Shown here: positions 1 to 14,745 of the stretch, piece after piece
How the letters are laid out: each line of letters opens with the position of its first letter
How positions within the stretch are numbered: position 1 is the stretch's first letter
Assembly (NCBI GenBank): GCA_016839815.1
Contig: JAEOTM010000101.1
Location: forward strand, 1 to 14,745
DNA from: Candidatus Hodarchaeota archaeon
GTDB taxonomy: Archaea; Asgardarchaeota; Heimdallarchaeia; Hodarchaeales; Hodarchaeaceae
Length of the DNA: 14,745 bases
Direction: 5' to 3'
The notes under the pieces: model-generated
Seen by the model: the letters and a program-made list of their open reading frames with translations, nothing else
Databases searched by the model: none
What the model was told of the DNA's origin: nothing
Translations under genes and position numbers: made by a program

Positions 1-2441
1 CCCATAGCGCTTGCCAGTTTCCGAGCATCATCAAACTCTACACTATTATTAAGATACGTCCATCTGTATGCAAGATAAAATTGGGATTCACGATCAATTC
101 TTGAAGGAGAAGCATCTTTGAGAAGACGGTTAATAATGAACTCAGTAACAACTGATCGGATGAAAGTAAGAAGATCTGTAACTAATACTTCTTTTCCTGA
201 ATATGTTTCTATTCTTTCATACCTACTAAACACTTCCATTCCTGGTCCGATAGCTGAAATGAAGAAGTCACCACCCGCTATCCCTTGGTTCCAGAACTGT
301 TGGAGTTTCTTCTTCACCTCTTTACTAATTTTTGGCTGTACATCGTTATAGAATCCTATGTCTTCACGTTTCGTTTTTCTACATACTACATAGATAGAAG
401 ATGCGAGTGCTGCTGATGTTTGAGCCCTCATCCTCCCACTCATTTCCGTATGAAGTGGCCAAGAGGCTGTCACGACAAAACCTGAGTTAACTAGTGAATT
501 AAGCATGACTTCCCATCCCGTTGTGGTTTTGTGAGCATAAATAATGACAGCTATACCATCGGGCTTTAATGTGCGGTAAATTTCAGCAAAGCTTCTAGTT
601 AGAGTCTTTTCGAAGTAACCTTTATCTTTTATTGTTGAATATTTCGATAATTCTCCAATGTTCTTCATCCGTCGTGTCAAGGAATCATTCTGAATACACT
701 CCTCATATCGTGGTACTAACGGTGTCTTGAAAAGATCGGGAAATAAGTCACCTACAGATCTTTTTAACCAAACATAAAAGAAGTCAGAAAGATCAGCATA
801 CGGAATATTATCATAGTAGGGTGGATCTGTAATAGTAATATCAAAGAAGTTATTAGGATACGGTAAAGAAGTAGCTGAATTTTGTCTGCAGGTTATCGAG
901 CCTCCCGTTCGAAATGTGAGTTTTTGTAAGACCATAAGAGTTCTTTCTATAGCTATTGGCCAGCTAGCTCCTTCTGGATTGAATACATTGGTTTCGCAGA
1001 AAGTCCAAGCCATTGGCAGAGCTGTTCTACTAAATGTATGAACAACTCCTCTGCCACCTGTGGTATTAAGTAAACACAATGATGATGCAAAATCAGCCAG
1101 TCGGTCTACCATGATAGCCAGATATCCCGCTACTACTTTTGCGAGTTCATCACCATTTATGTCTTCAATATTATGTGCTAACTTTACGCACTCATCAAGG
1201 ATACTCTTATAATTGCCCTTAATCTTGTCAATAAACGTCAGTAGGGCTAATAATTGTCTACCATTAAACAAGTCTTTGAAACGAGACATATTGTAATTGA
1301 CTTGTTGCATATGAACGAAAAATGGCTCCGTACCGTTTTGAACGACATTGCCCCCTGGAGTAGTCAATAGTTCTTCAGGTAATGGACTCTCAAGCAAACT
1401 CCAGTTCAAAGTCTTTTCTTGGAGATGTGCCTTCGCTCTCTCATAATCACAAATATCTTTTTCTGTTGCAATTCGATACTTCTTTCCTTTCTGATCAGGT
1501 TTGTTTGAAATAACAACTAGAAGTCTTTCACCCATTTTTCCTTCTAACGCCAATTTGGCAATTGAAGTTGTATTAGTTACTTGTCTGCAAAAGGGACATC
1601 TAGCTTTACCATAAGACATGATTCCTTCCAAAGGGTCAAAGTCAATTTCGCTTCCTATTCGAATCGAGAATGTAAGTTCATCGACCTTGTTGATTTCAGG
1701 TTTGAAAGCAACTGATTCTGAGCTTCTTCTCCCTCGAAATCTGGCCAACCAATAACTTGTAATTAGTGGTATTTCTTTGCCACAACTAGGATTTTGGCAT
1801 TGAATAGTACGTGCCCATAAATATCCAATTGGGATATGTCCACTTGGTTCTTTTGGGTAGAATTGTTCAATTTCGTCTTTAGCATCTTCTAAGACTTTCT
1901 TAGACCATTTTTCTACAAGAAGATGTAGTAGATTTACTTCTGTTATTCCTTCGAGTCTGAGTTGTTTTTCTTCATATGGTGTTGGAATAACCTTACCATA
2001 GGTTAAAGGCCACTCTAATGTGGCTTTCTGGATAAAAACTGCAACTGGATTATAGTCACTAGAGTAAACATCACAACCTAATCTTAGGGCTTCTAGAGGT
2101 ATAGAGCCACCTCCCGCAAACGGGTCGAGAACCTTTGGAGGATCACTCCACTGTTCTTTAATCATTGTTTGGGCTCTTTTTAGAGCCACCATTTTTTGAT
2201 TGCTACTCAAATTCCATGGACTAATACTTATGATCGTGTTATCAATCCTTCTCCGTTCTCTTGTAGAGTCAGGGAGATCAAGTAATGAAGCTAGTATCAT
2301 AGCTCTGGATGCCGAAAGTGGTTTCCTCGCCCACCAGATATGTAACGTTGAAGGGTGACCAAACCTGTCATTTCTTTCAATTGCAGAAAAATGTGAGATG
2401 TCTTGTAACGGCAGATCGTATTCTATGTATCGTCTTTTCAA
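1..2441 (-). CDS. DUF1156-family amino (adenine-type) DNA methyltransferase with Zn-ribbon; 3' end lies beyond the left edge (>813 aa)
   Basis: Not in the ORF track; translated by hand. TTG start at 2441-2439 overlaps the helicase TGA, and an in-frame TGA at 2450-2448 excludes an earlier start. N-terminus MKRRYIEYDLPLQDISHFSAIERNDRFGHPSTLHIWWARKPLSASRA matches the DUF1156 LHxWWAR(R/K)PL signature. SAM-binding KVLDPFAGGGSIPLEALRLG at ~2080-2135; Cys motifs YLWARTIQCQNPSCGKEIPL (~1765-1825) and RCPFCRQ (~1580-1600); catalytic TDPPYYDNIPYADLSDFFYVWLKR (~760-830). The same frame reads VEFDDARKLASAM at the left edge. I did not check every intervening codon. Confidence 0.93.
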   Translation of the reverse strand, partial: MKRRYIEYDLPLQDISHFSAIERNDRFGHPSTLHIWWARKPLSASRAMILASLLDLPDSTRERRRIDNTIISISPWNLSSNQKMVALKRAQTMIKEQWSDPPKVLDPFAGGGSIPLEALRLGCDVYSSDYNPVAVFIQKATLEWPLTYGKVIPTPYEEKQLRLEGITEVNLLHLLVEKWSKKVLEDAKDEIEQFYPKEPSGHIPIGYLWARTIQCQNPSCGKEIPLITSYWLARFRGRRSSESVAFKPEINKVDELTFSIRIGSEIDFDPLEGIMSYGKARCPFCRQVTNTTSIAKLALEGKMGERLLVVISNKPDQKGKKYRIATEKDICDYERAKAHLQEKTLNWSLLESPLPEELLTTPGGNVVQNGTEPFFVHMQQVNYNMSRFKDLFNGRQLLALLTFIDKIKGNYKSILDECVKLAHNIEDINGDELAKVVAGYLAIMVDRLADFASSLCLLNTTGGRGVVHTFSRTALPMAWTFCETNVFNPEGASWPIAIERTLMVLQKLTFRTGGSITCRQNSATSLPYPNNFFDITITDPPYYDNIPYADLSDFFYVWLKRSVGDLFPDLFKTPLVPRYEECIQNDSLTRRMKNIGELSKYSTIKDKGYFEKTLTRSFAEIYRTLKPDGIAVIIYAHKTTTGWEVMLNSLVNSGFVVTASWPLHTEMSGRMRAQTSAALASSIYVVCRKTKREDIGFYNDVQPKISKEVKKKLQQFWNQGIAGGDFFISAIGPGMEVFSRYERIETYSGKEVLVTDLLTFIRSVVTEFIINRLLKDASPSRIDRESQFYLAYRWTYLNNSVEFDDARKLASAM

Positions 2442-5400
2442 TTTTTTTCATCTTTTCCTTCAAATTTTGTCCAATTTTCTTCAGGTATCATATACCCTGT
2501 TGAATAGATGTCTTCATTTATCATAAATTGGTCTGCAGGATTTTTTATTCTAGTCAATTTTGAACTATCGGTTTTTGCGTATGTAATTATGTAAAGCCAA
2601 TAATTTTCTCCAAATCTTTTTGCTTTCTTCCACTCGTTAGCTGAGATGTGAACAGCACCTGAACGTGCTCTTGCTTTTACTTCAATATACCTTATTGCTT
2701 GAAAAACTCCATTTACATCGTATTTAGTAGATCGTATGTCAAACCCGAGATTATCATCAGAAACATTTTGAGGAATCCATCCTGTTTGAGTTTCAAAGCC
2801 AATAGCCACTTCCATACCTGCTTGTTCGACTTCTTTACTTGAAAACATAGGTTTAGGTTCAGCTTTTCTTGATGGTGGTATTACAATTGCAGCTCCGAGT
2901 ATTCTTGGTTCTGTAATCGTGATGTTTTTCTCTAATCTTATTTCCTTTTCAAGATCTTGTCGTTTCTGTTCGAGTCTATCTTTCCTCCTTGTCTCATTCA
3001 GAATTGGCATTGACATATCATAGTTTTCTTCCTGCTTTTGTTGGTACTCTAATAGTCTATGCGCAGATTCTTGAATAAGGTAATCGAGGGAACGAAGACC
3101 ATATCTCTTTTTAATCTGACTTTCTCTTAACCTAATTTCTTCAATCTTGGTCTTATATGGGAACAGAATCTCATTTACTGTGTACTCTTCAATGTCATTT
3201 TTATGTTTGAGGAGTGCTTCACACTCTTTATCTATCTTGTCTGGAGGCATCGGTTTTAGGTCCCATAATATGGACGAATTTATTTCTTGAAGACCTCCAT
3301 TCACATCTTGGTATACACAAAACATCCTTTTTCCCGCTGAATTTCCAGCACCATCTAAAACCTCGCCTTCAAAAAACCATTGAACACCATGTTTGCCACC
3401 ATGTTCATCCTCAAACACCGCATAACGTTGGCCTTTGAAGTTCTCATCTAAAATCTTCTCATTCACCGCTTCTAGTAAGGGGTGACCTGGAGCAATATAC
3501 TCGTATTCTCTATTTTCTCTTGCAATTTCTTTATAAAATGTAGTACGACTGTACAATCTTTCAATCTTGCCGTAACGTGTTTTAAAGCTATAATTATCAT
3601 TAAATTGACGTAGAAGGAGGGGGATAAAGTCAATTCGCCAATAATTTCTAATCTTATGAGCCCTTCCACCTATCTTATCAAAAGCTCGAAGGAAGTAATC
3701 TTGAATGTATTCTGGAACTAGCCTGTTTTCATCAGCTTCATTTGACTTTCTTAATAATCCAGTATAATCGATGTGACGTGTTGCTAGTCCTGTTTTGAAA
3801 AAACGTTCTAAAGTGGTTTGTACTTGTTCTTCATCAAGTTTATCCATGTATTCATAGATCTCTTCAATCCTTCTTTGATTGAAAATAGCATCCTTGAAGA
3901 ATTGCTCAAAATCAGTCTCGGGTAAGACTCTGCCTATTACATCAAACACTTTATCTGAACCTAAAGCTATTGCCATTGACTCCATCTTTGAGAAAAGCCT
4001 ATGTAGAATTCGCCCTTCTATAGTATCTCCACTTACCATATTCCATATGAAGACTTCTTTTTTCTGACCATACCTATGGATCCTACCCATTCTCTGCTCT
4101 AATCTATTGGGGTTCCAAGGTATATCGTAGTTGACCATCCATGAGCAAAATTGAAGATTGATACCTTCACCAGCTGCTTCAGTAGCCACCATTATCTGCG
4201 ACTCGTGTTGAAACTCCTTTTCCGCAGTTATCCTGTCAGGCATTCTCATACTACCATGTATTGTACATACGCTGTATCCCCACTTTCTAAGCTTGGAAGT
4301 TAAATAATCAAGGGTGTCTTTGAACTGTGTAAAAATCAAGAGTTTGTTGTCACCCAAATTTGTGAGTACTTTATCTCTTAGACTCACCAACTTGCTCTCG
4401 ATCTCTTTTTGTTTAACTAACTCAGCCTTGCCTATCAAATCAACTAATTGAGAAATCTCCTTCTTCACATCGTCAAGATTTTCAGCTATTGTGAGATTTG
4501 TTAGTTTTTCCTCTATCTCCCAACGCCTTTCCTCCTCCATATCCTCTAGTTCTTCTTCAGTAATGTCTTTAATCTCTTCATACTCGAGTTGTCGTTCCCT
4601 GATCTTACCAGGAAGTTCCAATAACTCCTCCATCCGCTCTTTCCTACGTTTCAAAGATTCAAGAATGGAGTCAATACTAGAAGTTAACCTCCTTTGAAGA
4701 ACCATCATAGCAAAGGAAATGTTACGTTTCTTCTGAGCTCTGTTGAAGTAATATCTCACATATTGGGTCACGCTATAGTAGAGATCTTTCTCTTCTTCAG
4801 TAAGCCTGAACTCTACCGTTCTGATATGACGAGGGGGAAATAACTTATTCCCTTTGAAATCTTTCATATCCTCTTTAAGCCTACGTACAAACAGTGGGTT
4901 TTCTCTTCTTTGAATCGATTCCTCCAGTAACTCAATTTTTGAGAAGAATCCTGGTCTTAAGAGATCTAAAAACAGCCTAAAGTTTTCTTCATTGCCTCTA
5001 TGTGGAGTGGCAGTTAGAAAAAGCATATGAGTCGAAAGGTCGGATAAAACCTCGCCTGCAAGGTATCTCTTCGTCTTTTGAATCTTGTCACCATAAGCCC
5101 AAGCAGATAATTTATGCGCCTCATCAACAACAACCAAATCCCATTGACTTGAACTAATCGTTCTTAAAACATCTGATTGCTTTAAGAAATCTATTGTAGT
5201 GATAACCTGGTTTCTTTCTTCCCAAACGTTCTCAGACCAATAGGCGTCCATCATGCTTCGATCCACGAAAACAAAAGATGAATTGAATTTCTCCTTTAAC
5301 TCCCTCTGCCACTGGTACTTCAAATGACCAGGGACAACAATTAAAATCCTATCTGCCATATTCCTATACTGCAACTCCTTGATCACTAAACCAGCCATGA

Positions 5401-5806
5401 TCGTCTTTCCAGCCCCAGCATCATCTCCAATAAGAAACCTGACTTTTGGAGACTTCAAAGCATAATCATACACACCATCAATCTGATGGGGAAGGGGATC
5501 AATCTGAGAAACATTAACCGCTAATAATGGATCAAATTGATAGGCAAGACGAATACGTAAAGCTTCAATCATTAAAAAGAAATCTTGAGCATCATCAAAG
5601 AAAGATAACTCTTCACTTACAATCTCGATTTGTTCAAGTTGTTCTTTCGAAATACGAAAGGGTTTAAACTGGTTATCCTTTCTTAATACCACCTCTAATA
5701 GAAAATATCCTGATCTCTCCTCAAACTTTTTAACTTCACCCAATCCATCAAAGATATCTGATTTAATTAAATCCCCTTCACTAAGAATTACGACTCCAAC
5801 CCCCAT
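2438..5806 (-). CDS. SNF2-family (SF2) helicase/ATPase with C-terminal DUF3883 (NO VEIN-type PD-(D/E)xK) nuclease-like domain, 1122 aa
   Basis: PLPHQ, motif I GDDAGAGKT, motif II DEAH, motif III LTATPH, QRRLTSS, ATEAAGEGINLQ, motif VI YDIPWNPNRLEQRMGRIHRYGQ. C-terminal GFDIRS...YIEVKAR...ISANEWKKAKRFGENYWLYII is the typical DUF3883 pattern. Confidence 0.93.
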   Translation of the reverse strand: MGVGVVILSEGDLIKSDIFDGLGEVKKFEERSGYFLLEVVLRKDNQFKPFRISKEQLEQIEIVSEELSFFDDAQDFFLMIEALRIRLAYQFDPLLAVNVSQIDPLPHQIDGVYDYALKSPKVRFLIGDDAGAGKTIMAGLVIKELQYRNMADRILIVVPGHLKYQWQRELKEKFNSSFVFVDRSMMDAYWSENVWEERNQVITTIDFLKQSDVLRTISSSQWDLVVVDEAHKLSAWAYGDKIQKTKRYLAGEVLSDLSTHMLFLTATPHRGNEENFRLFLDLLRPGFFSKIELLEESIQRRENPLFVRRLKEDMKDFKGNKLFPPRHIRTVEFRLTEEEKDLYYSVTQYVRYYFNRAQKKRNISFAMMVLQRRLTSSIDSILESLKRRKERMEELLELPGKIRERQLEYEEIKDITEEELEDMEEERRWEIEEKLTNLTIAENLDDVKKEISQLVDLIGKAELVKQKEIESKLVSLRDKVLTNLGDNKLLIFTQFKDTLDYLTSKLRKWGYSVCTIHGSMRMPDRITAEKEFQHESQIMVATEAAGEGINLQFCSWMVNYDIPWNPNRLEQRMGRIHRYGQKKEVFIWNMVSGDTIEGRILHRLFSKMESMAIALGSDKVFDVIGRVLPETDFEQFFKDAIFNQRRIEEIYEYMDKLDEEQVQTTLERFFKTGLATRHIDYTGLLRKSNEADENRLVPEYIQDYFLRAFDKIGGRAHKIRNYWRIDFIPLLLRQFNDNYSFKTRYGKIERLYSRTTFYKEIARENREYEYIAPGHPLLEAVNEKILDENFKGQRYAVFEDEHGGKHGVQWFFEGEVLDGAGNSAGKRMFCVYQDVNGGLQEINSSILWDLKPMPPDKIDKECEALLKHKNDIEEYTVNEILFPYKTKIEEIRLRESQIKKRYGLRSLDYLIQESAHRLLEYQQKQEENYDMSMPILNETRRKDRLEQKRQDLEKEIRLEKNITITEPRILGAAIVIPPSRKAEPKPMFSSKEVEQAGMEVAIGFETQTGWIPQNVSDDNLGFDIRSTKYDVNGVFQAIRYIEVKARARSGAVHISANEWKKAKRFGENYWLYIITYAKTDSSKLTRIKNPADQFMINEDIYSTGYMIPEENWTKFEGKDEKN

Positions 5807-6108: not shown

Positions 6109-8100
6109 TTAGGACTTGTTAAAATTAATTCTAATAAAGAGTTGATAAATTTGTTTGGAGTCATATTCAATAATTTCATTATCTGATCGATAATCTCTTA
6201 CTCTTGGATCAAAAATTATGTAAAATCCGTAAGGTACGTTTTCATAATCCATATAATATTGTATCTGTTCCATACCTTTTTTGTAATATTCTTTACCTCT
6301 CCAAATTTTTACTTCGAAGGGATATTTTTCATTATCCATAATCAGTAAAATGTCGCTTTTTCCCTTTGAAACCTTAACTTCTCGAAACTGGAACATTCTT
6401 TGTGGAAATGCGCCTTTCAAATGAGCTTGAATAAGTGATCTACCAATTTCTTCATTTGGCTTTTCTGTAATTTTGAATGCTTGGTGTAATTGTCTCTCTA
6501 CTAATGCTTTAAAGCCATCCAAAGCAGTTTTTATATTATTGAAACTAAGTTGTCTCCCAGCAAATGACTTTACATTTTGTTTAATGGTGTCAAGATACAC
6601 GTCTAGATAATATCTATTATCTTCAAACACCCTAGGTATAGGTAAATCTCTAATGCTTAATTCAGGAAGAAGCCTTACAAAATCGTTCAATTTTCTAGTT
6701 GCTCGAGATATTATCAATAAAGCTTGCGTAGGATTTTCAATTGCTGATAAAGCTTCTTCAAATGAACCTATTAACGCATCAAGGATTTTAGCTGTCTTAA
6801 TTGGTAAGTTGGACTTTTTTGTATCATCTAAATGTTTTATTGCTTCATCAATTAAATCGAAATTTTCTGAATGCTTGAATTTTTCAATGCATAAAATTGC
6901 CTTCACACACTGTATTGATGCAATAGTACGTTTTTCTTCTAATCTAATTTTTTTATGTAGTTTTACAGCTTCTTCTAATACTTTTATAGTATTTTCAAGT
7001 AAGCAAACTTTTTGATCATCATCTACGAAATTTGTTTTTGAGAGGTAGTGAAATCCTAGAAAATATCTTGCGTGTCCTTCATAATAGATTTTTTCTCTAT
7101 CGAACCTCAATTGATCCAATTTGGACATTAAAAAATCGTGTATCTTTAAGTACAAAGCAGGTGCTTCGGTCGGAATTGCAAAAGCTCGATTTCTGAGGTG
7201 AAAAGTATAACATATAAAATCACGATGAGTGAAAGGACCTCCCGAAATATTATAGAGTTCCAACCATTTATTACCAGCCAGTGTTAAAAGTTCAGATTTT
7301 TTATCGACTTCTAGCTCAGATCTAGCTTCAAGACTCATAATCTCTGCTCGTAAAAGTTTTTGTTTGTTCTTTCTTTTCCTAAACCAAGACTCATCATTAC
7401 TACTTGAACTCAACGTATGCGCATATTTATCAAATAATGATGAAGTACGACGCCAAAAATATGGTTCTTCAGTTACCTCTGCTACCCAAAAAGCCATGAA
7501 ACCTGCAGTACCAAAATCTTCAAATGATTCAAGTTCAACAAGTTTGTCTTCAACCCATTTCCTAAATGCAGCACTGCTTAACACTCTACGTTTTATTTCA
7601 AGTAATCTATACGTTCCAAGAGGAGGGACTTCTTTGGGATGTTCATTCCTCCAAAGTTCCATAGAAGATATTGCTTCCTGAGCAGCATTATCATAATCAT
7701 TTATTTTTAAAGCCTCATCCATCTTTGTGTAATGATAAGAATAACAAGCTTCAGGAATCCTACCAAAACACTCTCGACACATATTAGAGCAACATCTCAA
7801 CAAAATGTGGTCTTCTTTTTTCTTAATTGATAAATATTGACAATATTCCCCTTGAATTAAATCAGGGATTTCGTTTACTAAAGAGAAATCAACAATTGGA
7901 GACCAATCAGTAACAATTTTTTTGGTATTATTGCATTCTAAACACTGTAGAACAATCCATTCTTGATACCCACCTGCACCACTACCAATTTCTATCTTAG
8001 GTTGTGTTTTCGAATTACATGTAGAACAATGTTTCCAAATCCATCTCTGAAGATCCTCTTTCATATCTTCATATTTCTTCATAAAATCATGCAATGCCAT
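6109..8100 (-). CDS. Hypothetical 663-aa protein: N-terminal Cys-rich (Zn-binding) region, alpha-helical/TPR-like middle, C-terminal PD-(D/E)xK nuclease domain
   Basis: Long ORF with GAGGT immediately before the ATG. N-terminal CSTC...CLEC and C..CC...CREC......C. C-terminal EEIGRSLIQAHL...REVKVSKGKSDILL...YPFEVKIWRGKEYYKKGMEQIQYYM...GFYIIFD has the D..ExK core plus QxxxY, like the PD-(D/E)xK domains commonly fused to AAA-like ATPases. The helical-repeat call for the middle is inference. Confidence 0.75.
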   Translation of the reverse strand: MALHDFMKKYEDMKEDLQRWIWKHCSTCNSKTQPKIEIGSGAGGYQEWIVLQCLECNNTKKIVTDWSPIVDFSLVNEIPDLIQGEYCQYLSIKKKEDHILLRCCSNMCRECFGRIPEACYSYHYTKMDEALKINDYDNAAQEAISSMELWRNEHPKEVPPLGTYRLLEIKRRVLSSAAFRKWVEDKLVELESFEDFGTAGFMAFWVAEVTEEPYFWRRTSSLFDKYAHTLSSSSNDESWFRKRKNKQKLLRAEIMSLEARSELEVDKKSELLTLAGNKWLELYNISGGPFTHRDFICYTFHLRNRAFAIPTEAPALYLKIHDFLMSKLDQLRFDREKIYYEGHARYFLGFHYLSKTNFVDDDQKVCLLENTIKVLEEAVKLHKKIRLEEKRTIASIQCVKAILCIEKFKHSENFDLIDEAIKHLDDTKKSNLPIKTAKILDALIGSFEEALSAIENPTQALLIISRATRKLNDFVRLLPELSIRDLPIPRVFEDNRYYLDVYLDTIKQNVKSFAGRQLSFNNIKTALDGFKALVERQLHQAFKITEKPNEEIGRSLIQAHLKGAFPQRMFQFREVKVSKGKSDILLIMDNEKYPFEVKIWRGKEYYKKGMEQIQYYMDYENVPYGFYIIFDPRVRDYRSDNEIIEYDSKQIYQLFIRINFNKS

Positions 8101-8517: not shown

Positions 8518-9177
8518 CTAGCTAACTTTAGAAAAAGGTAGAAATCTTATTACTCTCTTGTATTTTCCGTCAATATTTAATGGATTAATGAATTTGTTAT
8601 AAATACGGGTACCATAAAGACTGATCAACATACTAAAAATAAGTTCTACTGCATTATTTGCGGGTACTAAAATGCAGGGTATGTGTTCAGGTAACCATTC
8701 AAAGTACTCATGTTTCTGATGATGTGGCTTTTTAGTAAATTGTGCATGGTAATAATTATGATTTGATTCTTCATGTTTCTCAAAGCGGATACCAAAACAT
8801 TGGAATCTAGTATCATTGTTATCGATGTATCTATACATTCCAATACGTAATTGAAGTTGAGGAGTATCATTGTTAAAGTTGGAACATAGTGCAAGTAGTG
8901 GAATAAAGTCCTTATTGGCATCAAGTGGTGGTAGATAAAAATTTTCTTCAAAGTCTAAATGAAGACTTGCTAAATTTTCCTTAATCAATTTTTTAAATGA
9001 TTCTTCACTATAAGGGGGAATAAAATATGTTAGATATTCATGGTTATCTCGTGTTGAAGAGATTAATTCATCATCTTTTAAATCCTTATCATTTCGCCAG
9101 AGTTTTTCTGACAGTTCATTCAACCGTTCAAGTACTTGACACATTATTTCAAAGTCTTTTTTTAAACTCTCTGGCAC
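8518..9177 (-). CDS. Hypothetical 219-aa His-rich protein, possible DUF2290-like effector; last gene of the vsr-dcm-GHKL/HK-REC cluster
   Basis: GTG start with GGTGA 6 nt upstream; 41 bp from the preceding gene on the same strand. Contains GIRFEKHEESNHNYYHAQF...LPEHIPCILVP...LIFSMLISLYG. The gene call is firm; the family call is tentative. Confidence 0.7.
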   Translation of the reverse strand: MPESLKKDFEIMCQVLERLNELSEKLWRNDKDLKDDELISSTRDNHEYLTYFIPPYSEESFKKLIKENLASLHLDFEENFYLPPLDANKDFIPLLALCSNFNNDTPQLQLRIGMYRYIDNNDTRFQCFGIRFEKHEESNHNYYHAQFTKKPHHQKHEYFEWLPEHIPCILVPANNAVELIFSMLISLYGTRIYNKFINPLNIDGKYKRVIRFLPFSKVS

Positions 9178-9183
9178 ATCAAT

Positions 9184-9188
9184 TCACC
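9184..9188 (-). promoter_or_regulatory. Ribosome-binding site GGTGA
   Basis: Minus strand ATGGTGAATTGATGTG: GGTGA with a 6-nt spacer to the GTG start at 9177. Confidence 0.55.
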
Positions 9189-9218
9189 ATTTATGAAAAA
9201 TGCTTACTCTTGATGAGT

Positions 9219-10391
9219 TTATAGAAGTCTGACTTTTGGACGGTAATTCGCGTTTTTTAGATTTTCACGAAGTAAAAATCTTCGAATGTACGGTGAGTCA
9301 GATTCAATTATGAACTCTGCACACTCTTCTTTACTATGGAACTTTGAAGTATCCTCACAAAAGCGAAAATTAATTACTTTTCTTTCCCAAGGAGTAAGTA
9401 CTTCTTTGATTTTTTGGTTATCTGAAAGTTTTTTCCAAAACCATGCATGTCTTGATAACCAATAACTAGGTTTAAATTTATAATCTTGAATTCGTTCGTA
9501 ATCGATTCCTAAATCTTCAACTTTTAGGAAGGTTGTAGTTTTATTCCAACTTTCTATATTTTCAGGATCATCTTTCAATAAACTGGGGTATCTATATACA
9601 AGGTGTGGAGTATCTACCAAGATATCTTGTCCAGGTAACAATAATCTCTCTAACCACTTTGAAACCCGAGCCCCTCCAATTCGTCCTACCATATCATCAG
9701 TTGGATTCACATCTAATCTACGTAATCCATTTTCTGAACTTATTACAAATTCTTTAAATGAAGTTTTAGTCGAGTCACCACCAATGAATTCGTTTGCAGT
9801 TCTTGGAAATGTTTCTATTACATCATCAATTCCCAAAACTTCACAAATAGGATCTTCTATATGATCAATAACATCCTTTATTTTTTTATTAAATGACTCA
9901 AGGTATTTTGGTAGTTGAGGCCAGTACCATGGTTTAAATAATGCGTTCTCTTCCCCCCAAAGTCCAAGGTTGTCCAGTTGTTCGCTACCTATATTTAAAT
10001 CAGCATACGATTCTATATGCCCTTTTAAGGTAAGATCAAAGGTATTGGTTCCATACTGGTTCAATCCTATTATTATTGAACACTTAGAAAAACAACGAGT
10101 GAGATAAGATATATTTTCACCAGTTAAAAAAGAATTTGGATCTGTTTTTAAAAGATCATAATCAATTATGAATATCGATGTTTCATCTAACTTGGAGGTT
10201 TTTTCATCCCATTCTCCTTTATGTCGAAGCATATTTTGTCTAGATATTAATACTTTCATCTCTTCTTTGAAATCTTCATTTTTCAATAATTCTACTTCAA
10301 AGTTTGTTTTAATAATATCTAAGTCTCCTAATTTTTTAGCATATCTTTCTCCTAATCGTCTATCATCATCATATATTCGAATCTTTTTCAT
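9219..10391 (-). CDS. Receiver (REC)-like domain protein with a large uncharacterised C-terminal region, ~390 aa
   Basis: Start moved from the track's 10406 to the second Met (10391), which forms an ATGA overlap with the kinase stop. N-terminal KKIRIYDDD (beta1 plus acidic pocket), SIFIIDYDL (beta3 plus candidate phosphoacceptor Asp77), then TGENI and CSIIIGLN. Directly downstream of a His-kinase gene. Confidence 0.75.
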   Translation of the reverse strand: MKKIRIYDDDRRLGERYAKKLGDLDIIKTNFEVELLKNEDFKEEMKVLISRQNMLRHKGEWDEKTSKLDETSIFIIDYDLLKTDPNSFLTGENISYLTRCFSKCSIIIGLNQYGTNTFDLTLKGHIESYADLNIGSEQLDNLGLWGEENALFKPWYWPQLPKYLESFNKKIKDVIDHIEDPICEVLGIDDVIETFPRTANEFIGGDSTKTSFKEFVISSENGLRRLDVNPTDDMVGRIGGARVSKWLERLLLPGQDILVDTPHLVYRYPSLLKDDPENIESWNKTTTFLKVEDLGIDYERIQDYKFKPSYWLSRHAWFWKKLSDNQKIKEVLTPWERKVINFRFCEDTSKFHSKEECAEFIIESDSPYIRRFLLRENLKNANYRPKVRLL

Positions 10392-12514
10392 TCTAATTCT
10401 CTCCATTTCAATGAAAATGCAGTATTGAATCCTTTTTGAGGTTCAACAAAAGATACTTTACACCCAATATTATATGCAATCAATCTTACTATAGTAAGTC
10501 CTAGTCCTGTTCCACCATATCCGAGAGCCCGTCTCTCAGAAGAAATTTCTACTCTTCTTTCAAAAGGCTCAAATAAAATTTCAGAATCTTTAAGATTTAC
10601 ACCACTTCCTGTATTTTGAACTATAATTTCAATAGTTCTATCCATATTTCTTGAACTTACTTCGATGAATTTATTTTCTGAATCTATCATTGCATTGAAA
10701 GAGTTAATGAAAACATTTTGGAATATTGAACTCCACTCAACAAGTGAAGCTTCAGGCAGAAGTAACCCCTCATCAATTTTACTTGTATCTATAGGTATTC
10801 CTCTAGCTAATGATGTTACTTGTTGTGTTATATCATCTATGATTTTTTTTGCTTGAAATCTTTTTTTATTCCTTAAATTTTCTGAATCAATATAATATGA
10901 AAAAAGAGAATTAGTCAGCATAGATCTTTCTAACCATGACGATAAAGCTTGTTTTAGCTCATTCAAAGTCGATCGAATTTTTTCGTTTTCAGTTTCAAAA
11001 GTTAATTGTCCTAATTGCTCAATAATATCTTCAATAGTGAAAAACTGTCGTTTAGTTTCATGCTGATAGGCAAGTGATGTAATCCCAGCCGTTGCTAAAG
11101 GCCCCATCAAGCTCACACGCTTTGCAATCTCTTCAGCTTCGGATTCGATTTCGTTTGTTACTTTTTGAATATCATTGTAAAGATCATCATAAACATTTTC
11201 AGGTATTTCAGGCTGATATTTAACTAAGACTTCTTCAAAACTAGTATGTTTTGGTTTTTCAGTTTTGGTCTTTAAAGCTTCAAGCTTGAGAGTCCTTACT
11301 CTCTCTACGTAAGAATAGTAGTCTAAAGCCCATCTGACCATATAAGCAAGATTGTCAAATGCTACGCTTTCTTGAAGCCTATCCCTAGTAATTAAAATAT
11401 GAAGACCTTTTTCTTTTGAAGTATCTACATTCACAGCTCCAAAAATTCGTGAAAGTGTAGGAAGAAACTGTAAACCTTGTTTTATTTGAAATTCTTTTGG
11501 TAAAAGTTGTGATAGGGTTAATCTATGAGAGTGAGCTAATTCAATCATTAACCAATCGTTTCTGGGATCACCATAATATGGTAGATGAAATCCCCCATCA
11601 TATACATGAACCCCTCCAAATTGATTAAAATACTCTCTAGCTTTTCCTACTTTGATATGATGAGGTTGTCTACGAGTTAAATGGTAAATTCTTATTTCAA
11701 AATCTCCATTAGATAAATCACAATTAGGAATGGTGTAATTGATCTTACTTGGGATCTCTCCAGCATATTCTAAAGATAATGAGACCTTTCCGTTTATATT
11801 ACGTCCAACAAGTTTGCAATGCCAGATATCCATGATGGCCTTTATTTGTTTGTTGAAAACATCTTCATAATCTTTTTCTGAAGAAATAAACGTAATTTCA
11901 AATGCTTTCTGTAGGTCCTCGATAGCTTTTATGTGACTCCTAAAAGGTGGTTGAAGCCACCAAATCTCTTGGGCAAGTCCTTGAATAAGAGACGATGACC
12001 AATCATGTTTTAATTCCATTAAAACGATTTGAGTACCTTTTTCGAATCCTTCTTCAGAGGTTATAATTTCATATTCAACACTTGCCTGAGTTAATTCACC
12101 AGCTTTTACTGCTTCTTCCCAATTAACATAAGCTTCAAGTCTAGAATTCAAATCTTTTTCAGAAGTTGTAAAAAGAGTCAATTTTTTTGCTAAATATTGT
12201 ACAGCAAGTCTACCAACACCTTTCGAGCCAGTCATTGACCTTCCAAAATTTCTTGAAATCCTTTGTTTTCGTTTGTGTGTTGAGCCAATTCTCATCCAGA
12301 AATCTTCAAACTCTTTAAAAGTCATACCGTGCCCATTATCAGTGACTATTACACAGTTTTTTTCAGGGTTTAACTCAATTGTAACTTTAGTAGCATCTGC
12401 ATCATAGCTATTTTTTACTAGCTCAGCTAACGCTATGTAAGGTTTACCAACCAGGCGTTCGCCTAGTTCTTCAAGTAATGCGGAATCGACTGTGAAGTAC
12501 AAATTTTCAGGCAT
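10388..12514 (-). CDS. MORC/MutL-type GHKL ATPase fused to a C-terminal histidine-kinase module, 708 aa
   Basis: N-terminal GHKL motifs ALAELVKNSYDADA, VTDNGHGM, GSKGVGRLA and GTQIVL, then an S5-like region (GGVHVYDGGFHLPYYG..DWL, TRDRLQE). Second module: H-box-like SLAYQHETK (His485), N-box NVFINSFNAM, G1 IIVQNTGSGV, F-box LFEPFE, G2 GGTGLGL. Confidence 0.9.
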   Translation of the reverse strand: MPENLYFTVDSALLEELGERLVGKPYIALAELVKNSYDADATKVTIELNPEKNCVIVTDNGHGMTFKEFEDFWMRIGSTHKRKQRISRNFGRSMTGSKGVGRLAVQYLAKKLTLFTTSEKDLNSRLEAYVNWEEAVKAGELTQASVEYEIITSEEGFEKGTQIVLMELKHDWSSSLIQGLAQEIWWLQPPFRSHIKAIEDLQKAFEITFISSEKDYEDVFNKQIKAIMDIWHCKLVGRNINGKVSLSLEYAGEIPSKINYTIPNCDLSNGDFEIRIYHLTRRQPHHIKVGKAREYFNQFGGVHVYDGGFHLPYYGDPRNDWLMIELAHSHRLTLSQLLPKEFQIKQGLQFLPTLSRIFGAVNVDTSKEKGLHILITRDRLQESVAFDNLAYMVRWALDYYSYVERVRTLKLEALKTKTEKPKHTSFEEVLVKYQPEIPENVYDDLYNDIQKVTNEIESEAEEIAKRVSLMGPLATAGITSLAYQHETKRQFFTIEDIIEQLGQLTFETENEKIRSTLNELKQALSSWLERSMLTNSLFSYYIDSENLRNKKRFQAKKIIDDITQQVTSLARGIPIDTSKIDEGLLLPEASLVEWSSIFQNVFINSFNAMIDSENKFIEVSSRNMDRTIEIIVQNTGSGVNLKDSEILFEPFERRVEISSERRALGYGGTGLGLTIVRLIAYNIGCKVSFVEPQKGFNTAFSLKWRELE

Positions 12515-12570
12515 TTTTCTAATACATTAATAACTCGCATCCAAAATTAAAGGTTTCATCTTCACATTTT

Positions 12571-13806
12571 TCAACTCAATAATTCAAGAGAAAAAATATA
12601 GGTTAACGTCATAGGAACCGCATTACCTATCATTTGCGATAATGATTCTCGAGTCCTTGCGGAGGAAAAATCGAAGAAGTCTGGAAAGAATTGTAAACGT
12701 GCAGCTTCGTGTGGTGTGATTGTTCTCATGCGACTTGGGTGGACATTTCTTCCTTGGCCTGGAGACAAGAAACCACTCGTTATTGTTTGTGCAGGTTTAT
12801 CGTATCTGATCCGACCATACATAGCTGGATATCTGTGAACTTTTCTGTGACAGGGAGGACGCAACCAATTTGGTAAAACATATACATCGTTTTCGTGCAA
12901 GTATCTTATCCTTTTCATATTCTCTTCCGAAAGGCGAGACGGGGTACTGATGTTTCCATTGGGAGTTTCATCCTGTATATCTTCAATAGCCCATCTTACA
13001 GTGCGGTCATTTTCGACACGGTTTTTTTCGACTACCTCTTCTATCGATACTTGTTTAGACCTTGAAGCGATCACAAGATGACGTTTACGTTTTTGAGGAA
13101 CGCCAATCGTAGCTAGGTTGACTATACCACTGTCGACTTTGTATTCTAGTTCATGCATTGTTTCTATTGCTTTCTTTGCTTCTCCGCTGTGGCTATATAT
13201 TATAGCTGGAACGTTTTCGATCATAACGTGTTCTGGTCTAGCTATTTCTATGAATCTTGCAACATTGTCATATAATCTGTTTCGGTCATCCTTGCGTCTG
13301 GTATGATTATTCAAATTCGAATGACCTTGACATGGAGGTCCTGCTAATAGTAAATCTACACGACTTATCTTCTTCAGAAAATCCTGTTCATTTTCAGTAA
13401 TATCTGATCCAACATCACCATCAATAACATCTTGGATCTTATGTTCATATATTCCACTATTGGGAAAATTATCTTTGTACACTCTGAGAAAATCCGGAGT
13501 TTTATCCAACGCTGCCTCTACCAGAAAATGTTTTCCAATCGAGTTACACGCTTCCCTAGCACCTAATGACATGCCTCCACAACCACAAAACAAATCTACA
13601 GCGTGTACAATTTCAGATGAGTTTATCTCTTCAGGTCTATTTTTCATTCTCAGATAACTATATTCAAACAATGAACGGGCATCTTTGTCATTCAAATTCG
13701 TGTTTCCTAATCGAATACTGGATAAAAAACGTCTACTATTTGGGAGATGGATCTCTCGAATAGCGATATTTTTGTCTGGGAAATATTTGAATTCTTGACG
13801 TAGCAT
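12571..13806 (-). CDS. dcm: DNA (cytosine-5)-methyltransferase, 411 aa
   Basis: Motif I VDLFCGCGGMSLG, IV LAGPPCQGHS, VI MIENV, VIII GVPQKRKR, IX ITPHEAARLQFFPD, X QMIGNAVP. About 65 aa of N-terminal extension. The symbol denotes the family, not CCWGG specificity. Confidence 0.96.
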   Translation of the reverse strand: MLRQEFKYFPDKNIAIREIHLPNSRRFLSSIRLGNTNLNDKDARSLFEYSYLRMKNRPEEINSSEIVHAVDLFCGCGGMSLGAREACNSIGKHFLVEAALDKTPDFLRVYKDNFPNSGIYEHKIQDVIDGDVGSDITENEQDFLKKISRVDLLLAGPPCQGHSNLNNHTRRKDDRNRLYDNVARFIEIARPEHVMIENVPAIIYSHSGEAKKAIETMHELEYKVDSGIVNLATIGVPQKRKRHLVIASRSKQVSIEEVVEKNRVENDRTVRWAIEDIQDETPNGNISTPSRLSEENMKRIRYLHENDVYVLPNWLRPPCHRKVHRYPAMYGRIRYDKPAQTITSGFLSPGQGRNVHPSRMRTITPHEAARLQFFPDFFDFSSARTRESLSQMIGNAVPMTLTYIFSLELLS

Positions 13807-13812
13807 TTTTCA

Positions 13813-14304
13813 TCATCCCAAATGTTCGTTATTCTCCTCAGTTCTCTCAATATCGAATGAACCAAGTTGTGTTAAAAACTCATGAAGATCTTTATTTAAT
13901 TTCTTTGGCTCATCCAATTCACATTCCCAAACCACAAGCACAGAATATCCCCTTTTTTCGAGGAGCGTGATTTTTTGTTTATCCCTCGCCTTATTATCGG
14001 CAAATTTTTTCTTCCAAAAATCTCGATTTCTCTTTGGAATAGTGGCTTTTTTACAATTTTCATGAGCGTGCCAGAAGCATCCATGAACAAATATCGCCCA
14101 CATTCCCTCTCGACTCGCCACGTCAGGACTCCCAGGTAAGTCTCTCGTATTCGTTTCATAGTGAACATTATATTGATCTAAAATTTTTCTGACAGCTAAT
14201 TCCAGAGACGTCCCTTTCTGTCTTATGCTAGCCATTAAACGAGATCTTTTTGGTGTAGTCTCGAAATTGAATGTTTCTGACGTCTCCGCATCCCCCAAAA
14301 TCAT
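13813..14304 (-). CDS. vsr: Very-short-patch repair (T:G mismatch) endonuclease Vsr, ~163 aa
   Basis: RSRLMASIRQKGTSLELAVRK, DLPGSPDV, AIFVHGCFWHAHENC, PKRNRDFWKKKFADNKARD, GYSVLVVWECEL. Ends 6 bp before the methyltransferase start. The ATG at 14304 is preferred over the track's GTG at 14361 because it gives a more typical Vsr length. Confidence 0.95.
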   Translation of the reverse strand: MILGDAETSETFNFETTPKRSRLMASIRQKGTSLELAVRKILDQYNVHYETNTRDLPGSPDVASREGMWAIFVHGCFWHAHENCKKATIPKRNRDFWKKKFADNKARDKQKITLLEKRGYSVLVVWECELDEPKKLNKDLHEFLTQLGSFDIERTEENNEHLG

Positions 14305-14465
14305 ATGTATTGAAATTAGAATGGTGAATACATATTTTATTTCTTGTACAACTTTCTTCACTCTCTATAACCTTTACAACCCCATTTAATACATTCCTTT
14401 TCATTTTTAGTTTCATAATCAATGCGGTGATGCTTGATTAATTGCTTCGGGTTCAACTAATGGGC

Positions 14466-14745
14466 TTATGCATTATATTTTGTCCAATTGTATTCATCTA
14501 ATAATTTAGGTAGCGTAGTTGCCTTACTATTACATTCAGACACTAAATTTTCAAAAACTGATTCCTTAGACGTTTTTCGAATGATTGAATATTCACGTAT
14601 CAAATAATCAGCAAATAGTTTCATTCTCCACATGAAATTTACGTATCCTAATTCATTATCCGAACATCCATAATTATATCTAATTTTATTATCGTACATC
14701 ATGAAAAAGTTTGGATTTGTTAAGTGAAGGATTTTTGATGTTGCG
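14466..14745 (-). CDS. 3' part of a hypothetical protein, possibly helical DNA-glycosylase-like (DUF6308-like); 5' end lies beyond the right edge
   Basis: The frame stays open upstream of the track's Met to the window edge: ATSKILHLTNPNFFMMYDNKIR...TTLPKLLDEYNWTKYNA*. SKILH...P..F..YD..IR resembles the Lys/Asp region that follows the HhH in glycosylase-like folds. Confidence 0.55.
   Translation of the reverse strand, partial: ATSKILHLTNPNFFMMYDNKIRYNYGCSDNELGYVNFMWRMKLFADYLIREYSIIRKTSKESVFENLVSECNSKATTLPKLLDEYNWTKYNA

Follow-up and report, generated by a model that had tools for sequence, protein, structure and literature searches.

A probable divergent branch of restriction-modification-linked two-component cassettes, with a conserved third protein, on a Hodarchaeota contig

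The closest described relatives of the locus studied here combine DNA methylases with two-component signalling. A computational survey without experiments and limited to bacteria (Bellieny-Rabelo, Pretorius & Moleleki 2021, PMC8011034) described kinases of HATPase_c_3+HEF_HK+HATPase_c architecture, which in 91.6% of the 644 regions were associated with Response_reg_2 proteins. C5 methylases and Vsr were enriched in their vicinity, and a paraMORC ancestry was suggested for these kinases. Anti-phage activity has been shown for Ambrosia of Pseudomonas aeruginosa (bioRxiv 10.1101/2025.09.30.679545), a cassette (AbrR-AbrA-AbrB-AbrC-AbrD) that comprises an XRE regulator (AbrR), an N6 methylase, a HATPase/kinase, a protein with a receiver (REC) domain and a wHTH (winged helix-turn-helix; AbrC), and a Type IV HNH nuclease (AbrD). 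All five genes and the receiver aspartate are needed, a D60A mutant of the receiver losing defence; phage is not protected by methylation, and the authors favour infection-induced transcription, reporters placed in the cassette being induced by infection. Here we describe a five-gene cluster with a related composition in a Candidatus Hodarchaeota archaeon. It lies on contig JAEOTM010000101.1, which was analysed as a whole (14,745 bp, hereafter the window) and belongs to a 4.24-Mb metagenome-assembled genome of 89.5% completeness and 7.8% contamination.

The cluster was found to consist of five intact, co-oriented genes on the minus strand, which carries every substantial open reading frame (ORF) of the contig. 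They encode, in order, Vsr, Dcm, a kinase of 708 amino acids (aa), a 390-aa receiver protein and a 219-aa protein, and are separated by gaps of 6, 56, -4 (an ATGA overlap) and 41 bp. A sequence-only reading of the same DNA had described this layout with an intact C5 methyltransferase and Vsr, and the ORF coordinates and profile matches agree with it; that reading had also reported no recognisable Type II restriction endonuclease, and profile scans of the window proteins (Pfam, NCBIfam, PADLOC) likewise detected no recognisable restriction endonuclease in the cluster. A pattern scan with one genome per species returned 80 related loci, distributed among more than 15 phyla of bacteria and archaea, in which the last three genes were followed with profile hidden Markov model searches. 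All 80 loci have the kinase, 78 the receiver protein and 75 the small protein; each miss coincides with a contig end, and the three genes are complete in 75 of the 75 loci whose contig extends far enough. The kinase-receiver junction usually overlaps, with a median of about -3.5 bp across loci, compared with the 4-bp overlap in the window. The kinase, the receiver protein and the 219-aa protein therefore form a triad whose members always travel together, and the five-gene arrangement is far beyond chance; the conservation of gene order across taxa, which the sequence-only reading had proposed to check, holds.

With regard to its spread, the triad behaves as a mobile accessory system. More than 3000 kinase homologues were found, and a sample with 60% mean column identity includes Bacteroidota, Dehalococcoidia, Proteobacteria and several archaeal groups. 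Five archaeal lineages are represented among the related loci (Bathyarchaeota, Nitrososphaerales, Aenigmatarchaeota, Thermoplasmata and one further archaeon), as is a Rubrivirga plasmid. The kinase tree does not follow taxonomy, and in it the window kinase groups with archaeal and WOR-3 sequences; its closest relatives are archaeal (Bathyarchaeota, 61%). Within the window's genus only 1 of 22 genomes has the receiver protein, and within its phylum only 2 of 400. Such a patchy distribution, together with a taxonomy-blind kinase tree, is the signature of a mobile accessory system. Given that 21 congeners have no cassette and that the genome shows 7.8% contamination, the presence of the cassette here may reflect either a recent transfer or mis-binning of the 14.7-kb contig. 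Genes neighbouring the related loci include Type I restriction-modification (R-M) genes, an AspBHI-like enzyme, AAA_15/DUF3696, STAND and HEPN genes. The AspBHI-like enzyme (L040:9126-10352; RE_AspBHI_N at 6.5e-65, plus Mrr_cat) lies directly after a triad that has no methylase nearby. AspBHI-type enzymes are Type IV restriction enzymes dependent on 5-methylcytosine (5mC).

The methylase is the exchangeable element of these loci. Of the 80 related loci, 62 have a Dcm no more than 10 kb from the triad, and in 38 of the 63 Dcm-bearing loci (the window counted) it is directly upstream and co-directional. Single-linkage clustering merged nearly all Dcm sequences, and two identity classes were used instead. 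On the kinase tree, at least 7 switches between these classes are needed, of which well-supported branches require at least 4. Eco57I-like N6 methylases replace Dcm in three loci and in two distant plasmid cassettes, and several Poribacteria loci contain intact triads without a methylase, flanked by housekeeping or transposase genes. Judged from these sequences, the methylase appears to be both interchangeable and dispensable. A conserved triad accompanied by changing methylases argues against a sequence-matched Type II nuclease. Vsr occurs within 10 kb of the triad in 35 of the 80 loci, either preceding Dcm or following the final gene, and this frequency is an argument for Dcm activity on host DNA during normal growth. 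The sequence-only reading had supposed that Dcm marks self DNA and that the ATPase clamp senses unmethylated DNA. This proposal is weakened by the exchange of methylase subfamilies, the N6 replacements and the methylase-less triads, as well as by the observation that methylation does not protect phage in Ambrosia.

In five Poribacteria loci (L010, L014, L022, L023 and L028), no methylase lies within about 10 kb; all five have full-length kinase and receiver genes, and four a full-length small-protein gene, the contig of L023 coming to an end. Sister Poribacteria loci retain Dcm directly upstream, and transposases and Type I R-M fragments flank two of the methylase-less triads. On a plasmid of Mycolicibacterium arabiense, the Dcm of the triad (L089:3092-4756) is seemingly fused to a Vsr-like C-terminus: its residues 417-530 match the Vsr regions of other loci in tblastn searches, and an Eco57I-like methylase lies alongside.

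In the window, the Dcm-type C5 cytosine DNA methyltransferase (12571..13806, minus strand, 411 aa) matches PF00145 at 1.1e-52 and TIGR00675 with 138.7 bits. All of its catalytic motifs are readable in the translation: I (FCGCGG), IV (PPCQ), VI (ENV), VIII (QKRKR) and X (GNAVP). The very-short-patch mismatch endonuclease Vsr (13813..14361, minus strand) has a longest ORF of 182 aa with a likely start at 14304 (Met20 of that ORF) or 14235; it matches PF03852 at 7.6e-19 and TIGR00632 with 107.8 bits (cut-off 97.85), and its translation contains the PGSPD and FVHGCFWH motifs.

The 708-aa protein (10388..12514, minus strand) is, to judge from its profile matches and motifs, a MutL/MORC-type ATPase joined to a complete histidine-kinase core, which agrees with the GHKL-ATPase-histidine-kinase fusion described in the sequence-only reading; both the H-box and the ATP-binding boxes are intact. 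HATPase_c_3 (PF13589) matches residues 27-129 at 5.7e-25 and HATPase_c (PF02518) residues 596-703 at 2e-19. The protein is presumably soluble, as no long hydrophobic stretch was seen when the translation was read by eye. The N-terminal GHKL (Bergerat) ATPase module (residues 7-180, 11975..12496) was matched to NF050001, the BbrUII/HgiDII family model: the first ~180 residues of the kinase match only positions 3-179 of its 659 positions (1.4e-27, 96.5 bits, cut-off 550). PADLOC REase_II models match the same GHKL stretch. Among 120 homologues, E31, N35, D59, G61 and K98-R102 of this module are invariant or nearly so. The middle domain (residues ~247-401, 11312..11776) is the most conserved part of kinase alignment A1 and has an hhalign match to a true HEF_HK locus described below; it is possibly a transducer domain. 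The histidine-kinase core (10406..11062) comprises the H-box, with the H485 codon at 11060-11062, and a CA domain (residues 594-703), and is matched by PhoR and PnpS profiles at ~1e-11 to 1e-12. Within it, H485-E486, N600, N604, G636, G638 and the G2 box (G665-G672) are invariant or nearly so in the same 120 homologues. The aspartate of the G1 box, present in 115 of these, is an asparagine in four, including the window copy (N634, codon 10613-10615). As three other homologues also have asparagine at this position, N634 is likely a tolerated minority state, with no clear sign of decay in the sequence.

The 390-aa protein (9219..10391, minus strand) starts at the ATG that overlaps the kinase stop codon, so that it is translationally coupled to the kinase gene, although its longest ORF begins at 10406. 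The sequence-only reading had regarded it as a REC-domain partner with Asp77 as acceptor, and the predicted structure (pLDDT 94.5), on which the assignment is based rather than on Pfam, is consistent with this: it shows an atypical receiver domain (residues 1-170) followed by a C-terminal domain of ~220 aa whose fold is unplaced. D9 and D77 (codon 10161-10163) are invariant and D8 is nearly so; they are located at the ends of strands 1 and 3 and supply the receiver's acidic pocket and acceptor site. Atypical features of the domain are a long helix 2 and the lack of a clear helix 4 and of a recognisable conserved lysine; N111 follows strand 4. The C-terminal domain (residues 172-390) is separate and confidently modelled, and its D260, H263, E346, S349 and R371 are invariant. 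A profile search found no helix-turn-helix (HTH) family at E <= 1 in any of 45 receiver proteins, an ESM Atlas search with the C-terminal domain yielded no usable match, PDB sequence searches with the receiver protein, the 219-aa protein and their profiles found nothing, and no PADLOC model matches either protein.

The third triad protein (219 aa; 8518..9177, minus strand) has no detectable relative of known function, and its Foldseek and VIA searches against PDB and BFVD gave no match over background. It shares with DUF2290 proteins a short co-linear motif, R-[FY]-[DE] ... H-x3-H-x-[QH] (IRY[DE]...HPxxHLHIG in DUF2290), which in the window reads R131-x-E133 ... H140-x3-H144-x-Q146 (8740-8787). 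An ESM Atlas search placed a cluster with 17% DUF2290-bearing members at rank 22 with a score of 0.87. A comparison by hhalign of the 219-aa alignment with a 19-sequence DUF2290 alignment was not significant (probability 0.09), PF10053 (DUF2290) was absent from 39 family members at E <= 1, and 22 members gave no PADLOC match. A possible relation to DUF2290 is treated as a lead. The Rst helicase+DUF2290 anti-phage system (Rousset et al. 2022, PMC9122126) shares only this short motif with the 219-aa protein, and its partner is a helicase, whereas the partners in the window are the kinase and receiver pair. The fourth gene of the distant plasmid cassettes of Paraburkholderia (L088) and Rhizobium (L095) also carries the H-x3-H-x-Q motif. 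The small protein is therefore an old component of the superfamily, one that the 2021 paper (PMC8011034) did not describe. In the Rhizobium cassette (plasmid pTH2c, L095:10109-11038), the distant triad consists of an ATP-binding protein, a 376-aa protein and a 235-aa protein with the motif; an annotated GIY-YIG nuclease follows it, and a divergent S-adenosylmethionine (SAM) methyltransferase precedes it.

Compared with these described systems, the window most resembles the HEF_HK (PF19191)/Response_reg_2 (PF19192) modules. In both, the kinase is soluble and carries HATPase_c_3 at its N-terminus and HATPase_c at its C-terminus, and the gene beside it is receiver-like without a known output domain; paraMORC affinity, an upstream C5 methylase and frequent Vsr are further common features. 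In contrast to those modules, the branch of the window also occurs in archaea and has a third conserved protein absent from the 2021 description (PMC8011034). One locus recovered here, L091, is a true HEF_HK locus (HEF_HK at 2.4e-28, 98.8 bits; Response_reg_2 at 1.1e-35; then Vsr). Aligned with it by hhalign, the window kinase family reaches a probability of 88% in the CA domain and of 83% in the middle domain; for the receiver family, only the acceptor-aspartate motif aligns. Ambrosia, compared by its description, is likewise a single cassette that groups a HATPase/histidine-kinase protein with a methylase, a receiver protein and one additional protein. It differs in having an N6 methylase, an XRE regulator, a receiver wHTH and a Type IV HNH nuclease, whereas the window has a C5 methylase with Vsr and a fourth gene encoding the 219-aa protein; no HNH or XRE family match was found in any of the nine window proteins. 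The BbrUII/HgiDII enzymes (NF050001) share the type of N-terminal GHKL ATPase module and the partnership with a C5 methylase, but only the first ~180 residues correspond, the remainder of the window protein being the middle domain and the histidine-kinase core, and its score falls short of the full-length threshold of 550 bits. Several hallmarks of two-component signalling are present, namely the H-box histidine and the N, G1 and G2 boxes in the kinase and a receiver fold with acidic pocket and acceptor aspartate in the predicted structure, and the kinase also contains the GHKL ATPase part, which in MORC/paraMORC proteins precedes an S5-fold transducer domain. The sequence-only reading knew of no characterised system with this complete composition. 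This holds insofar as no PADLOC model spans all components, but the layout was published in 2021 (PMC8011034), and Ambrosia, which follows the same logic, blocks phages. A phosphorelay-controlled, methylase-linked defence system is thus a reasonable interpretation, but one anticipated in print and partly tested on a relative.

Considering the evidence as a whole, we think that the cluster is probably, with considerable reservation, a horizontally mobile R-M-like defence cassette of the 'R-M plus two-component' class represented by HEF_HK/Response_reg_2 and Ambrosia, in which it would form a divergent branch. In such a cassette, the GHKL module and the middle domain would use ATP to sense either DNA or some cue of infection, upon which the kinase would autophosphorylate at H485 and pass the phosphate on to D77. 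Once phosphorylated, the receiver would release or activate its own C-terminal domain together with the 219-aa partner, these two forming the executive part, which would most likely act on DNA. Dcm would be a replaceable companion enzyme and would modify the host's DNA while the cell grows normally, which could explain why Vsr is kept to repair 5mC deamination, and it is probably not the sequence-matched partner of a Type II nuclease. Only tentatively do we go further and suggest that the receiver C-terminal domain and its 219-aa partner constitute an effector that has so far escaped recognition, be it a nuclease of new fold or a module that acts on DNA without nucleolysis, switched by His-Asp phosphotransfer from a MORC-like DNA sensor.

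Several observations weigh against this interpretation. What is known of the present branch comes from sequence and predicted structure. PF19191 (threshold 24.1 bits) has no match in the kinase at E <= 10, nor on the contig in a whole-genome search; PF19192 (threshold 27 bits) has none in the window, and one of 45 receiver proteins reaches an E-value of 0.009. Where a G1-box aspartate would be expected, the window kinase carries N634. Phosphotransfer is uncertain because the receiver has no identifiable conserved lysine or threonine and apparently no helix 4. Structure, PDB, BFVD and ESM Atlas searches revealed no nuclease fold or motif in the receiver C-terminal domain or the 219-aa protein, and the distant sister cassettes have an extra nuclease, GIY-YIG in the Rhizobium plasmid and HNH in Ambrosia, so the triad itself may not cut DNA. 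Finally, the Ambrosia authors favour transcriptional control (10.1101/2025.09.30.679545). The same preference underlies an alternative that we regard as unlikely, in which the kinase would respond to infection and the phosphorylated receiver would be a transcription factor inducing the methylase and the effector, here the 219-aa protein. The reported wHTH of AbrC and the induction of cassette reporters by infection (10.1101/2025.09.30.679545) speak for such a switch, and the unplaced fold of the receiver C-terminal domain is compatible with DNA binding. However, none of the 45 receiver proteins contains an HTH family at the threshold used, the invariant Asp, His, Glu and Arg of the C-terminal domain look more enzymatic than DNA-reading, the cluster offers no separate nuclease gene to induce, and the linkage to Vsr suggests that Dcm acts in normal growth.

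The matches of the N-terminal 180 residues to the BbrUII/HgiDII model and to the PADLOC REase_II models, and the C5 methylase adjacent to the triad in most loci, would also fit a classical ATP-dependent Type II enzyme of the BbrUII/HgiDII kind, in which the large protein cuts unmethylated Dcm sites and the kinase and receiver functions only modulate. Against this stand the restriction of the match to model positions 3-179 of 659 (96.5 bits against 550) and the behaviour of the methylase: its subfamily changed at least 4-7 times beside a conserved triad without a variable specificity domain, N6 methylases replace it in some loci, and intact triads occur with no methylase nearby. We consider an enzyme of this kind improbable. 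Still more doubtful is a role in repair or epigenetic signalling, in which the ATPase would be a MutL-like component of very-short-patch repair that works with Vsr and reports 5mC-deamination damage by phosphorelay. The GHKL ATPase MutL stimulates Vsr of E. coli, and the adjacency of Vsr, Dcm and a MutL-like ATPase would be explained by such a partnership; yet Vsr lies within 10 kb in only 35 of the 80 loci, some triads have an N6 methylase beside them or no methylase at all, the cassette is patchily distributed and horizontally transferred, its neighbourhoods are defence islands, and relatives show a phage-defence phenotype (Ambrosia).

Relative to the published systems, the new elements are a divergent branch that is very widespread and extends to archaea, a third protein whose conservation is strict, the lack of a recognisable nuclease or DNA-binding output, and a methylase that appears interchangeable and dispensable. 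Phosphorelay-gated restriction-like immunity has one experimental example so far, Ambrosia, which is explained by transcriptional control and an HNH nuclease. The present branch is much more widespread, with its >3000 kinase homologues in bacteria and archaea, and has two conserved proteins without a detected relative of known function. The function of both proteins would reveal how a MORC-type ATPase, of a family used in eukaryotic genome defence, couples to a prokaryotic effector, and also the role of the swappable methylase. If the triad does contain an effector of its own, this would represent R-M-like immunity in bacteria and archaea, with the methylase as an exchangeable accessory instead of a sequence-matched partner.

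A promoter and terminator scan returned nothing above shuffled expectation. Upstream of vsr lies a 92-aa ORF (14466-14744, minus strand) that is open at the contig end and has no family match. Downstream of the cluster follow, in order, a 663-aa orphan, HmaA (PADLOC 3e-195) and HmaB (PADLOC 7e-124). The orphan (6109-8100, minus strand) contains N-terminal CxxC clusters and shows faint C-terminal matches (NERD, E 0.14; PADLOC PDC-S54, 1.5e-4). It was considered as a part of the system and rejected, being missing from all 80 related loci, and is treated as a separate island gene. With HmaA and HmaB close to the cluster, the contig is a defence island, which agrees with the defence role proposed in the sequence-only reading. 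HmaA (2438-5806, minus strand) is an SNF2 helicase with a NOV_C/DUF3883-type C-terminus and overlaps HmaB (3-2441, minus strand), a DUF1156 methylase that runs off the contig. The Hma system is partial here, and its third gene would sit past the left contig edge. In one related locus, L060, HmaA- and HmaB-like genes also lie directly after the triad.

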